This document shows, piece by piece, positions 19,382-24,198 of a stretch of 34,066 nt of DNA; position 1 is the first letter of the stretch; every line of letters begins with the position of its first letter. This stretch comes from Calditrichaceae bacterium (lineage in GTDB: Bacteria; Calditrichota; Calditrichia; Calditrichales; JBFXGD01), in contig JBFXGD010000020.1 of assembly GCA_050178385.1 (NCBI GenBank), forward strand, positions 1 to 34,066, given 5' to 3'. Made by a program: the position numbers and the translations under genes. The notes beneath the pieces are model-generated. The model saw only the letters and a program-made list of their open reading frames with translations. It had not been told where the DNA came from and searched no databases.

Positions 19382-19427
19382 TTGTTTTTTGATGAGAATT
19401 ATCTATATTAGGTGTACTTATGTACAC
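19382..19427 (+). promoter_or_regulatory. Putative sigma-70 promoter with a palindromic operator (LexA-like) upstream of dnaE
   Basis: TTGTTT (19382-19387) -16 bp- TATATT (19404-19409), then perfect GTGTAC-TTAT-GTACAC (19412-19427) just before the GGAG RBS. Confidence 0.65.
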
Positions 19428-19439
19428 TTGGAGCTTATA

Positions 19440-22400
19440 ATGAACGGATTCGTGCACCTTCATACACACAGTTATTACAGTCTTTTGGATGGTATTTCTT
19501 CTCCGGAAGAACTGGTTATTGCCGCCAAAAAAAGCGGCATGAAAGCGCTCGCGCTGACCGATCATAACAGTCTTTACGGCGCGATCGAGTTTTATCAGAC
19601 CGCGAAAAAATACAATCTGAAACCTATCATAGGCGCCCAATTACGAATTTCGGACGGCTTCGATCTCATTTTTCTGGTAAAAGATGATACCGGTTACCGG
19701 AATTTATGCAATATAATTTCGATCGGGCAGTTAAACGGGGGCCATCTCAAATTCCGGATAGACATAAAAGATATTTTTCATTACAAGGACGGATTAATCG
19801 TTTTGTCCGGCGGTCACAAAGGAAAGATTTTTCATCTGCTCCACAAACGCCGGTTTGATGAGGCAATAGAAGAAGCATGTCAGCTGCAAAGTCAGTTCGG
19901 AGAAGATTTTTTTCTCGAAATGCAGCATTTTTCACCACAGCACACAATTATCAATCTGAGGCTTCGGGATATATCGGCGGAATATAAAATTCCGCTGGCG
20001 GCGACCAATGATGTTCATTTTGTTTCGCTGAAAGACTGGTCACTGCGGCGTGTTTTGCATGCAATCGACGCCAACACAGTCTCCGGCAAAATTGAAACCG
20101 CCGGAAGTTCCGAGCAGCATTTAAAATCCCCCGGGATGATGAAAGAGATGTTTGATGTCTTTCCATCGGCTCTGACGAACACTCAGCGCATCGCGGGAAT
20201 GTGTCATTTTGAGTTTGATCTTGGAAAGCCCATTTTTCCTTCGATTGAACTGCCGGAGGGTGAAACAGGATTTTCATATTTATGGAAAAAGAGTTTTGAA
20301 GGCGCGACCAGGCGGTACAAACCTCTGACGCGTGAAGTAATTAAGCGGCTTCAATATGAACTGCAAACCATCCATGACCTTGGGTTTGCGGAATATTTTT
20401 TGATCGTCAAAAACATAGTCGATTATTGCCATAAAAACCATATTCCATGCGTGGGGCGCGGATCTGCCGCCGACAGTCTCGTTTCTTACGCGCTTGAAAT
20501 TACCCAGGTCGATCCAATCCGTCACAACTTATATTTTGAACGTTTTCTTAATCCGGAACGCGCCGATCCGCCGGATATTGATCTGGATATCTGCTGGAAG
20601 AACAGAGACCGCGTACTCGGCTATGTTTATGAAAAATACGGCAAAGACCGGGTTGCCATGATTTGCACTTTCAACACCTTCCAGGTGCGGTCGGCCATAC
20701 GTGATGTTGCCAAAACCTACGGACTGCCCGAAGACGAAATCGGCAAACTTACCAAACATCTGCCGCACCGCGCCATCGAACAGCTTGAGGAAACGATTAA
20801 CACCCTGCCGGAATTACGCGAACTGCGTCACAATCTCTCATTGTATGAAGAAATCATTCGTATCGCCCATCGTATTGCCGATTTTCCCCGTCACCTTTCC
20901 ATTCATCCCGGAGGCGTCATTATCGCTCCGGACCGGATAACCAATCATACCCCGCTGGAAATAGCCGGGAAAGGAATTGTTATTTCTCAGTACGATATGT
21001 ATTCCATCGAAAAACTGGGCTTGGTTAAAATGGATCTTCTCGGCGTGCGCTCGCTTAGCGTTATCACGGACTGTATCCGCGCGGTAAAGAAAAAGGCCGA
21101 ATCCGGCGATCTGAAAACCGTTGCGGATAAGCATAAAAAAACGCCGGATTTTCTCCTGAAAAACAGCGATGAGCTCTCCCCGCTTGATTTGAGAACGATT
21201 CCCGGGGAAGATCCCGATGTCACCGCCTATATCCGTTCCGGACAGACTATGTGCTGTTTTCAGCTGGAAAGCCCCGCCATGCGCGGATTATTAAGAAAAA
21301 TGATGATTGAAGGCGTTGACGATGTCATTACAGCCGTGGCGCTGATACGGCCGGGCGCATCCGGCAGCGGTATGAAAGAGATCTATATAAAACGGCGCGC
21401 GGGGCTGGAAAAAACCACATATATCCATCCATCCATCGCTCCCGCCCTTGAAGAAACTTACGGTGTCACCATTTATCAGGAGCAGGTGCTGCGCATTGCC
21501 CATCTGGCTGCCGGACTCAGTCTTGGGCAGGCTGATTCACTTCGCAGAGCCATGACCAAATCACGCAATAAAAAAGAATTTTTAAACATTCACGGGGCGT
21601 TCATTCAGGGCGCATTAAAAAACGGACTGGACAATTCACAGGCTGATACAATCTGGCAATTTCTCTCGCAATTCGTCGGCTACGGTTTTAACAAAGCCCA
21701 TTCGGCCACATACGGCACGATCGCCTATCAGACCGCTTTTTTGAAATATTATTTCCCCCTGGAATATATGTGCGCCGTACTCAATAACCAGGGCGGTTTT
21801 TATTCCCGGATGGCTTATACAGAAGAGGCGCGGCGTATGGGATTGCGGCTTTTGACTCCGGATGTTAATTATTCGGAAGCTGATTTTAGCAGTGACAACG
21901 ACGCCATCAGGACCGGACTCGGAGCGGTTTTTGAACTTTCAGAAAAGACGATTCAGTCAATCATAGCCGCCAGAAAAATCAAATCTTTTTCCGATATATT
22001 TGATTTTATCAGAAGAACCCGGGCAAACGAAAAAGAGATCGGGCACCTTATCAAAGCCGGAGCCCTGACATCCATCCATCAAAGCGCGCCCCAGCTTCTG
22101 CTGCTGAACAGGCTGTATTTTAAAAACAAAAAAAAGACGGCTGTTGTACAGTATGTGGCGGGTGAAACCGAACTAGAACCATTTAACGATTATCAAAAAA
22201 TCATCAACGAAATGGAGATGCTCGATTTTGCCGTCACGGATCATCCCCTTGCTCTTTTTGAACAAAATATTCCCGGCGACAGCATCATTCCTTCAACAGA
22301 AATTGAATCTCATAAAGGTAAATCTGTTACCTGTATCGGGTGGCTGGTCACATCACGACGCATCGCCACATCCAAAAATCAATATATGAAGTTTCTCACA

Positions 22401-22628
22401 CTGGAAGATCGTTTCGGCTTGTTTGAAGTCGTCCTTTTCCCTGCCGTTTATAACAGGTTTGGCCATTTAATCCGCACTCACGGACCCTACATTATTACGG
22501 GAAAAATACAGTCCCGTCTGCCGGGAGAAGCCAATCTGATTGTTGATAAACTGGAAATTGTCGCCATGGACAAAAAAGAGATTGAATTTCTTCTGCAAAA
22601 AAAAGAACCTCTGGAATGGAACGATTAA
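19440..22628 (+). CDS. dnaE: C-family DNA polymerase III alpha subunit, probably a non-replicative DnaE2 type
   Basis: HLHTHSYYSLLDG (PHP), GRGSAA, FERFLNPER, PDIDLD, KMDLLG, FQLES, YQEQV, YGFNKAHS, C-terminal OB fold (TLED). ATG 19440 after GGAG. Confidence 0.92.
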   Translation: MNGFVHLHTHSYYSLLDGISSPEELVIAAKKSGMKALALTDHNSLYGAIEFYQTAKKYNLKPIIGAQLRISDGFDLIFLVKDDTGYRNLCNIISIGQLNGGHLKFRIDIKDIFHYKDGLIVLSGGHKGKIFHLLHKRRFDEAIEEACQLQSQFGEDFFLEMQHFSPQHTIINLRLRDISAEYKIPLAATNDVHFVSLKDWSLRRVLHAIDANTVSGKIETAGSSEQHLKSPGMMKEMFDVFPSALTNTQRIAGMCHFEFDLGKPIFPSIELPEGETGFSYLWKKSFEGATRRYKPLTREVIKRLQYELQTIHDLGFAEYFLIVKNIVDYCHKNHIPCVGRGSAADSLVSYALEITQVDPIRHNLYFERFLNPERADPPDIDLDICWKNRDRVLGYVYEKYGKDRVAMICTFNTFQVRSAIRDVAKTYGLPEDEIGKLTKHLPHRAIEQLEETINTLPELRELRHNLSLYEEIIRIAHRIADFPRHLSIHPGGVIIAPDRITNHTPLEIAGKGIVISQYDMYSIEKLGLVKMDLLGVRSLSVITDCIRAVKKKAESGDLKTVADKHKKTPDFLLKNSDELSPLDLRTIPGEDPDVTAYIRSGQTMCCFQLESPAMRGLLRKMMIEGVDDVITAVALIRPGASGSGMKEIYIKRRAGLEKTTYIHPSIAPALEETYGVTIYQEQVLRIAHLAAGLSLGQADSLRRAMTKSRNKKEFLNIHGAFIQGALKNGLDNSQADTIWQFLSQFVGYGFNKAHSATYGTIAYQTAFLKYYFPLEYMCAVLNNQGGFYSRMAYTEEARRMGLRLLTPDVNYSEADFSSDNDAIRTGLGAVFELSEKTIQSIIAARKIKSFSDIFDFIRRTRANEKEIGHLIKAGALTSIHQSAPQLLLLNRLYFKNKKKTAVVQYVAGETELEPFNDYQKIINEMEMLDFAVTDHPLALFEQNIPGDSIIPSTEIESHKGKSVTCIGWLVTSRRIATSKNQYMKFLTLEDRFGLFEVVLFPAVYNRFGHLIRTHGPYIITGKIQSRLPGEANLIVDKLEIVAMDKKEIEFLLQKKEPLEWND

Positions 22629-22676
22629 TAAATCACCCGATATTGCCGACATTAGTTTTTTATTTTTATCTTGCAT

Positions 22677-22783
22677 ATATAAACACATTGCTTATATTTC
22701 ACTTTATATAAGTTTTTTACTTATTTTTGTTTTTATATAAGCTAATCAATTATAAATATGCGAATATAACAGAAAGCCTTATA
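22677..22783. repeat. Four ATATAA-N9-TTAT(A) palindromic boxes at an exact 29-bp period
   Basis: TATAA half-sites start at 22678, 22707, 22736 and 22765: TATAA-acacattgc-TTATA, TATAA-gttttttac-TTATT, TATAA-gctaatcaa-TTATA, TATAA-cagaaagcc-TTATA, with 10-nt linkers. Confidence 0.85.
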
Positions 22784-22789
22784 ACTGCA

Positions 22790-23434
22790 ATGCAAAATCA
22801 ATATCTCGTGATAATCGGTGATATTATCGGATCAAAAGGAATCAAAAATCGTAAACAGGTTCAGCAAAGATTCATGAGCGCGCTGAATGAGTCATCGGCT
22901 GCATACGCGACATCCGTGGTCTCCCCACTGACATTAACCATTGGCGATGAGTTTCAGGTGGTGTTATCGGATTCAGGAATGCTTTTTGATACGCTTTATC
23001 AGATTGAATCGAGCATGGAGGGAATATCTCTGCGCTACGGTTTCGGGATGGGTGGCATTGACACGGAAATTAACAGAGAAAGCGCCATCGGGATGGATGG
23101 ACCGGCATTTCATTATGCCAGAAACGCGGTCGAAACAGCGAGAAATATGAACAAAATATATGTATTAAAGTGCGCCGATAAATCGAAAGAAGCGAGAATA
23201 AATATATTACTGGACTGGTTAAATGTAACAACAGCAAAATGGAATATTCAAAAAAAGAGTATTTTGTTTTATTACGGGAAACGCTGGACCCAGACTAAGA
23301 TTGCCGGGAAAGTCGGAATGACCCAGCCTGCGGTTTCACAGCATCTCAAAGATCCGGCCTTTCCGCTTGTAAACAGGACACAAATGAGTATTCAGACAGA
23401 CATGAACAACATAATCTCGGACCGCACAATATGA
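22790..23434 (+). CDS. SatD-family protein (nucleotidyl-cyclase-like domain + C-terminal HTH)
   Basis: YLVIIGDIIGSK, TLTIGDEFQ, LRYGFGMG, GMDGPAFHYAR, then TQTKIAGKVGMTQPAVSQHL (HTH). ATG 22790 is the likely start. Confidence 0.87.
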   Translation: MQNQYLVIIGDIIGSKGIKNRKQVQQRFMSALNESSAAYATSVVSPLTLTIGDEFQVVLSDSGMLFDTLYQIESSMEGISLRYGFGMGGIDTEINRESAIGMDGPAFHYARNAVETARNMNKIYVLKCADKSKEARINILLDWLNVTTAKWNIQKKSILFYYGKRWTQTKIAGKVGMTQPAVSQHLKDPAFPLVNRTQMSIQTDMNNIISDRTI

Positions 23435-24198
23435 ATATACAAATTATTTACCTGGCGATATATTTAACGGGCCGTCTTTTGTTCTATGATATGAATCTGA
23501 TCATCTATCCGCACGCCCGTCTAAAAAAGCGCTTTATCATCAAACGGATTTTATGGGGAATGACCGCGATAATACTGGCTGTGGATTTATCATCCGCCAT
23601 GCTGATATTCATTATTCACTCGCTGATGGTTTTAATCGACTCGCTTCTTCTTCCGGGAAAAACGCACAATGCTAAACTTTTCCTTCTCCTGCACCTGTTT
23701 ATCGGTCTAATTCTTTTTCCGCTGCAGCTCTCTTTTATGGAAAACTGGCTTCCCGCTATGCCAAATAAAATGGCTGAAATCATATTTGAAGGATTAAAAG
23801 GGAGTGCTTTTCATAAATTCACTCTTCCCGATATAAATATTGACCAGTTACTTCTTATTCTCACGGGATATGTATTTACCCTCAAGGAAAGTACGATCCT
23901 TATACGTCTGATTCTCAACAGGATTCAGGCGGTTCCTACCCAAAAAAACTTTCCCGATGAAACTGATACTGATGAGTATGACCGCGGTAAACTGATCGGT
24001 AATCTGGAACGGACATTTATTTATTTTCTAATCATATTTGATCAGATTGCCGCGATTGCCGTCATTATCGCTTTAAAGTCACTGGCCAGATTCAAGGAAA
24101 TGGATGATAAAAATTTTGCGGAATATTTTTTGATTGGTTCCCTGCTCTCATTATTTCTTGCCGCTCTTCCGGCGGTGTTGGTACTCTTATTGTTCTGA
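23431..24198 (+). CDS. DUF3307/SatE-like polytopic membrane protein
   Basis: Many TM segments; C-terminal GKLIGNLER...ALKSLARFKE...FAEYFLIGSLLS signature; ATGA overlap with the satD stop. Confidence 0.8.
   Translation: MNIQIIYLAIYLTGRLLFYDMNLIIYPHARLKKRFIIKRILWGMTAIILAVDLSSAMLIFIIHSLMVLIDSLLLPGKTHNAKLFLLLHLFIGLILFPLQLSFMENWLPAMPNKMAEIIFEGLKGSAFHKFTLPDINIDQLLLILTGYVFTLKESTILIRLILNRIQAVPTQKNFPDETDTDEYDRGKLIGNLERTFIYFLIIFDQIAAIAVIIALKSLARFKEMDDKNFAEYFLIGSLLSLFLAALPAVLVLLLF

Follow-up and report, generated by a model that had tools for sequence, protein, structure and literature searches.

Palindromic boxes at a conserved 28-29-bp period in front of satD are predicted to form an autoregulatory operator array

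The window, a stretch of 34,066 nucleotides from a Calditrichaceae bacterium, carries a gene of the SatD family directly downstream of a gene for a dnaE-type polymerase III alpha subunit (19389-22628), and evenly spaced palindromes occupy 107 of the 161 bp that separate the two genes (dnaE stop 22628, satD ATG 22790; 77% AT). This arrangement raises the question of which protein the palindromes serve and how its binding would affect the genes downstream. As detailed below, the array is most probably of a known kind, an autoregulatory operator array, and its owner is an uncharacterised system.

The initial annotation had described four evenly spaced palindromic boxes in front of satD, and these were confirmed. 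The palindrome TATAA-N9-TTATA is present as box 1 (22678..22696, matrix score 16.1, overlapping a predicted promoter), box 2 (22707..22725, score 20.6, the best match to the clade consensus TATAAG-N7-CTTATA), box 3 (22736..22754, score 17.9) and box 4 (22765..22783, score 14.6, the last one before the start codon), all without an assigned strand. The boxes are 19 bp long and separated by linkers of 10 nt, which results in a period of exactly 29 bp, and 6 nt remain between the end of box 4 and the satD ATG. The motif originally quoted, ATATAA-N9-TTAT, is likewise present, but its matches start at 22677, 22706, 22735 and 22764, one base before the positions given with it, which belong to TATAA-N9-TTATA. 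A degenerate fifth copy that had been suspected near 22650 did not hold up, as the sequence at 22650..22668, 28 bp before box 1, scores 5.2 against 14.6-20.6 for the boxes and its left arm is altered in the relative L001; it is probably non-functional. A match to ATAA-N9-TTAT at 22811 within satD was considered as an additional box and assigned to chance (score -2.5, off the period). An alternative TTG start of satD at 22727 was discarded given that homologues start at the ATG equivalent to 22790.

The box pattern matches six times in the window compared with 0.25 matches expected. In a shuffle test of the periodicity as proposed with the initial annotation, four equally spaced palindromes never arose when the gap was dinucleotide-shuffled 20,000 times, the best shuffle containing three, and the pattern is thus not frequent in the shuffled gap; the test accepted any 4-bp arm, any spacer of 3-15 and any period and did not assume the motif. 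Furthermore, 11 columns are identical across the four units, whereas at most 10 were reached in 3,000 shuffles with the period left free. The comparison with the 93%-identical relative L001 (Calditrichaceae) revealed changes in 0 of 40 arm positions versus 14 of 73 other positions (Fisher p 0.002), in line with the earlier reading of conserved arms and divergent interiors as putative selected binding sites. The array is real and conserved, and it is almost certainly functional.

A sigma-70-type promoter is predicted at 22671..22698 on the forward strand (TTGCAT 22671-22676, 16 nt, TATATT 22693-22698), its -10-like hexamer TATATT consisting of the right arm of box 1 and one additional T. The element TTGCAT-16-TATATT had been proposed before; the sequence is indeed there, but it lies under the threshold of the promoter scanner, which called no sites, and its support comes from the register within the clade. 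There, TTG[ACG]NN-16/18-TA[TC]ANT, placed so that its second hexamer coincides exactly with the right arm of a box, was detected in 15 of 21 loci, as opposed to 1.0 (at most 5) when linkers and flanks were shuffled and the boxes kept. Since the predicted promoter sits on box 1, protein bound to this box would mask the promoter core, and protein on the other three boxes the transcribed leader as far as the start codon. Judged by the general properties of sigma-70 promoters, this geometry indicates repression. Activation instead of repression may apply to loci in which the promoter overlaps the last box. In the spirochaete loci L012 and L015 the last 35 nt in front of satD contain a TTGACA-18-TACAAT element that shares sequence with the last box and is separated from the satD ATG by 7 nt, a position that suggests a leaderless transcript.

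In order to compare other satD genes, 209 loci were gathered, the start codon being available in 207, and 161 were left after dropping loci that were more than 80% identical or had less than 130 nt upstream. A motif-free 4-mer lag profile of these 161 upstream regions peaked at lag 29 (6.3-fold over shuffles) and lag 28 (3.8-fold), with lag 58 at 3.9-fold and lag 56 at 2.3-fold and all other lags at or below 1.6, while the coding-DNA control had no 28/29 peak. When any period of 20-40 was allowed, three palindromic boxes fitted best at 28 or 29 in 95 of the 161 regions. In a per-locus test (p <=0.02), which is liberal as it uses mononucleotide shuffles and which was applied to related loci that do not represent independent samples, an array was present in 74 of 113 loci bearing a membrane partner gene downstream, in 3 of 4 without partner, in 6 of 12 with insufficient downstream sequence and in 1 of 32 loci of a paralogous partner-less clade. 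Among the partner-bearing loci the array was detected in 74 of 104 when satD was not operon-internal versus 0 of 9 when it was internal; the 30 of 104 leading satD genes without significant array include most Negativicutes and Acidimicrobiia loci. Within the clade of the window, three or four boxes with the consensus TATAAG-N7-CTTATA were counted at 21 of the 23 loci, and the steps between boxes comprise 39 of 29 bp and 10 of 28 bp. Different boxes at the same period were identified in Spirochaetota (L012, L015), Acidobacteriota (L016), Clostridia (L013, L065) and on alphaproteobacterial plasmids (L082, L083), and the best box period is also 29 in the haloarchaeal plasmid loci L079 and L081. 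The earlier expectation of ATAA-N9-TTAT arrays at 29 bp before other satD genes is therefore borne out for the period of 28-29 bp, but the letters ATAA-N9-TTAT are kept in this clade only. That the period stays fixed from bacteria to archaeal plasmids although the letters vary is indicative of a conserved protein-DNA assembly.

The changing letters appear to be related to SatD itself. In a second clade with the helix SExAVYKN the boxes read TTNAACC-N5-GGTTNAA, and Calditrichota hold two box types, on different SatD clades. Across 61 loci with clear arrays the box similarity correlated with the identity of the recognition helix (0.54, palm identity allowed for), and residues 177-185 ranked first of 65 nine-residue windows with a partial correlation of 0.53 compared with a median of 0.10. 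Palm windows (99-110) likewise attain 0.36-0.37, so that this correlation is not entirely freed from the effect of common descent. Residue Q184, part of the predicted recognition helix, varies together with box position 6: among the 36 of 61 loci with an AA[G/C] half-site, Q occurs with AAG in 15 of 15 and K with AAC in 20 of 20, whereas a single locus pairs R with C. A tree built from the palm alone shows three changes of both traits, with only one independent pair on well-supported branches, so that the Q/K rule is suggestive and not significant on its own. The comparison suggests that box letters follow the SatD helix rather than host taxonomy. The array predicts a SatD binding site, a promoter and a one-residue specificity switch, and the family offers sets of orthogonal repressor-operator pairs.

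The gene satD (22790..23434, forward strand) encodes a protein of 214 aa which belongs to the family PF16264 (E 5.5e-37; 127.9 bits at a cut-off of 29; model positions 1-205 of 211). The structure model (pLDDT 96) comprises an N-terminal nucleotide-cyclase-like palm (residues ~1-150) and a C-terminal HTH, the helices of which (residues 168-175 and 179-187; 23291..23350, forward strand) were assigned from profile and model; the HTH profile weakly matches the HTHs of GerE, UPF0122, DeoR and NarL. Residues conserved in SatD include D11, S15, R21, GDEFQ 52-56, D103 and R111. The fold of the palm matches class III adenylyl/guanylyl cyclases, GGDEF, GTP cyclohydrolase III, Cas10 and mCpol at Z 8-10 with none of them standing out; the best match is 5mbg (Z 10.1, rmsd 3.5, 136 aligned), and 2qv6 (Z 9.9, rmsd 2.9, 117 aligned) and the Panoptes mCpol 9mnr (Z 8.0, rmsd 2.8, 107 aligned) are also matched. 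SatD shares with class III cyclases, GGDEF and GTP cyclohydrolase III the palm fold and the position of D11 and D53, which align with the two metal-binding Asp of the cyclases in an otherwise non-significant profile comparison (hhalign probability 0.6%). It differs from them in having 14-19% identity, no match to the family sequence profile at a significant level, no evident catalytic Asn and a fused HTH. Searches of SatD for PF00211, mCpol and PucR/CdaR Pfam families gave no match, and no solved structure is related by sequence to the SatD palm or to the membrane partner. PucR/CdaR-type regulators combine a GGDEF-like domain with a C-terminal HTH, and their palms are degenerate and located behind a sensor domain. 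The domain order of palm and HTH is as in SatD, which in contrast retains the acidic residues and has no extra domain. The SatD palm probably binds nucleotide and metal, either as sensor or as enzyme.

The second gene of the operon (23431..24198, forward strand) overlaps satD by 4 nt, is translationally coupled and encodes a DUF3307-like helical membrane protein of 255 aa. No Pfam family including PF11750 (DUF3307) matched this partner up to E 1. It shares a profile family with the Pfam-DUF3307 protein of the haloarchaeal plasmid locus L079 (E 3e-51), and DUF3307 proteins occur among its homologues; the label DUF3307-like is based on this profile relation without a direct Pfam match. The model (pLDDT 92.7) is all-helical and multi-pass, and the invariant residues include E193, R194, K216 and R220. 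Foldseek gave no match of the fold at E 0.001, the best Z of 8.9 among helical membrane proteins is not meaningful, and the matches in the structure Atlas were unnamed clusters only. This coupled membrane gene, to which the initial annotation of the boxes made no reference, is probably what the array controls.

The palindromes of the locus are repeated, are under selection and overlap the predicted promoter of a gene whose product carries a DNA-binding domain, as is characteristic of autoregulatory arrays. Judged from the sequences, the boxes are most probably occupied by the HTHs of SatD dimers, which would thereby repress the satD/DUF3307-like operon to which satD itself belongs. One SatD dimer would sit on each palindrome via its two C-terminal HTH domains, and neighbouring dimers would touch each other and load cooperatively. 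Different phyla share the 28-29-bp period even though their box letters vary with the helix, which suggests that the spacing is set by dimer-dimer contacts. As 29 bp correspond to 2.76 and 28 bp to 2.67 helical turns, approximately 34 degrees apart, the occurrence of both implies that the arrangement tolerates about 34 degrees; at a guess, the dimers might form a spiral or wrap round the DNA. The cyclase-like palm may act as nucleotide-binding sensor or synthase that tunes the repression, and a transcription factor with a cyclase fold may add a new nucleotide signal.

The likely purpose of such a repression would be to keep the coupled membrane protein low, as judged by the loss of satD being lethal in Streptococcus pyogenes Tn-seq while its operon partner is dispensable. 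In the accessible parts of PMC11323703, satD is present in 178 of 249 S. pyogenes genomes, and no other accessory gene falls into the top essentiality class; its operon has two members, both accessory according to the tables. All 9 of 9 data sets class satD as essential and its operon partner, which the tables do not name, as non-essential. By analogy with this distant homologue of the window SatD, the split would be the pattern of a repressor or antitoxin that guards a harmful partner. Harm from an unrestrained membrane partner is nearly an even call, leaning slightly against; if the partner is toxic, there would be a simple cause for the unexplained essentiality of the S. pyogenes accessory gene. 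The gene layout, a small two-gene operon, agrees with that of toxin-antitoxin systems, and the antitoxins AbiEi and Rv2827c have been described to repress through several inverted repeats (PMC7319586, accessible parts). These operons resemble the present one in their two genes, a two-domain DNA-binding first protein, several inverted repeats and, as judged by S. pyogenes, a first gene needed for growth. By comparison, SatD carries its HTH at the C-terminus and joins it to a cyclase-like palm, its partner sits in the membrane, and the family keeps three or four boxes at a fixed period of 28-29 bp.

An unlikely but more elaborate alternative retains this repression and adds catalysis and defence to it: as in a Panoptes-like guard, a nucleotide made by SatD would keep the membrane protein inactive, the array would set the SatD level and loss of the signal would kill. 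In Panoptes the minimal palm enzyme mCpol neutralises a membrane toxin by catalysis (PMC12657230, PMC12657218, accessible parts), and SatD does not appear in the main text of either paper. Panoptes (mCpol/OptS and 2TM-beta/OptE) and the SatD operon have in common a minimal palm with two acidic residues encoded upstream of a membrane gene and possibly an antitoxin-like logic. In addition to the order of enzyme gene and membrane gene and the S. pyogenes essentiality data (PMC11323703), the guard is favoured by the palm fold, resembling that of class III cyclases, GGDEF and GTP cyclohydrolase III (Z ~10) and of mCpol 9mnr (Z 8.0), and by D11 and D53, which 112 and 113, respectively, of the 113 partner-bearing loci retain. 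However, the same Asp residues are kept in 32 of 32 loci of the partner-less paralogue, the match to the class III cyclase profile is negligible, and a plain repressor also accounts for the Tn-seq pattern. With mCpol-family synthases SatD has the shared fold only, its Z value being below those of the class III cyclases, and it carries an HTH and an operator array; the all-helical, multi-pass partner differs in fold from a 2TM-beta or CARF-TM effector. A defence context was not found either, as PADLOC detected neither satD nor the partner (0 of 2) and matched 5 of 114 neighbouring genes as a raw count, with generic models only; location in a defence island was accordingly rejected. A broader formulation, which we likewise regard as improbable, takes SatD/DUF3307 for a cross-domain addiction or guard module of an undescribed type: a cyclase-fold enzyme would act as its own repressor, the array geometry would couple occupancy to nucleotide synthesis or sensing, and the nucleotide or the repression would restrain a lethal membrane protein. 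Such a module, if real, would account for satD being the sole essential accessory gene of S. pyogenes.

Much less probable than this guard is the binding of the boxes by another host-encoded regulator or a nucleoid protein with SatD merely located downstream. The boxes are AT-rich, and single N7 boxes outside the array are in mild excess in the genome (16 versus 2-11 for other spacers, about half of them within ORFs), as might be expected of such a regulator. However, the letters track the SatD helix, the two box types in Calditrichota occur on different SatD clades, and the same period is found on archaeal and proteobacterial plasmids. A matrix scan of the genome revealed no second array. The 348 single ATAA-N9-TTAT sites in the 3.9-Mb genome are about as numerous as those with other spacers, all genome-wide pairs of ATAA-N9-TTAT at 29, 58 or 87 bp derive from this array, and the dnaE-satD gap ranks first of 646 AT-rich upstream regions of this genome for 28/29 periodicity. 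A wider regulon was rejected on the same counts of arrays and single boxes.

It is very improbable that the array represents a recombination, replication or RNA element such as an integration site, iterons or repeated hairpins. The cassette occurs on plasmids and its neighbours are variable, which would suit a mobile or replicative element, but no recombinase or Rep gene accompanies it in the loci examined, the arms of 5-6 AT-rich bases would presumably be too weak for hairpins, and the array is tied to a promoter-like element and missing when satD is operon-internal. A chance pattern or a decayed tandem duplication, as the AT content of the gap might suggest, is refuted by the shuffles, the selection on the arms and the family-wide period.

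Repression of the operon by SatD is also compatible with the distribution of the array. The 114 neighbours flanking satD fall into 93 groups, and since the flanking genes vary, the array goes with satD and not with dnaE. A dnaE-group gene precedes satD in 7 Calditrichota loci, pointing to an ancient insertion site in part of the phylum; a link to dnaE or to an SOS-type regulon was rejected because the dnaE group accounts for only these 7 sampled upstream neighbours. The SatD family was represented in 77 of the 86 Calditrichota genomes, frequently by two genes each, and in 3 of 151, 4 of 151, 11 of 120 and 7 of 151 genomes of four other groups sampled, each of these counts including the genome on which the sample was centred. 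The gene also occurs on a few plasmids, three of them haloarchaeal (L079, L080, L081); in two of these three satD is followed by a DUF3307 (PF11750) gene, comparable to the DUF3307-like gene of the window. Scans of IMG/VR, and of a phage collection queried with one clostridial SatD, gave no viral satD. The sat operon of Streptococcus mutans likewise contains a member of the SatD family (PF16264), but here satD leads its own operon after dnaE and does not follow ffh.

According to the accessible parts of PMC11323703 satD has an association with acid tolerance and is otherwise 'not studied', and those of PMC10326533, PMC12005413 and PMC5786311 just list it. No description of a SatD operator, DNA binding site or cyclase fold was found in a literature search that covered few subscription papers and main texts rather than preprint supplements. 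The proposed repression of the operon would provide a testable function for a widespread family known by name only.

Among the single boxes of the genome, high-scoring intergenic ones are located at G000:C15:5866, C91:2834, C52:20371, C159:6088 and C103:1541. The N-terminus of a gene 73 nt from one single intergenic box presumably resembles that of Rho. The second rank in the periodicity scan was taken by a simple repeat at G000:C173 (~2860-2930) that consists of about 10 head-to-tail copies of the 7-bp unit TTAAGAG and lies approximately 110 nt upstream of a gene whose product begins like a signal peptide. The genome also encodes a second SatD paralogue (G000:C105:3787-4464, reverse strand; L209) with the sequence xKGDEFQ, E in place of G101 and N/S in place of R111. 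This paralogue is widespread in the searched Calditrichota genomes and occurs without membrane partner and without array; its gene overlaps a gene weakly similar to HNOB/DUF2378 (TIGR02265) at the end of a housekeeping run. Furthermore, six proteins of 410-428 aa (P0133, P0164, P0181, P0206, P0245, P0260) contain two SatD-matching stretches each and are possibly tandem fusions that would mimic a dimer, and in L066 the SatD domain is part of a 707-aa frame.
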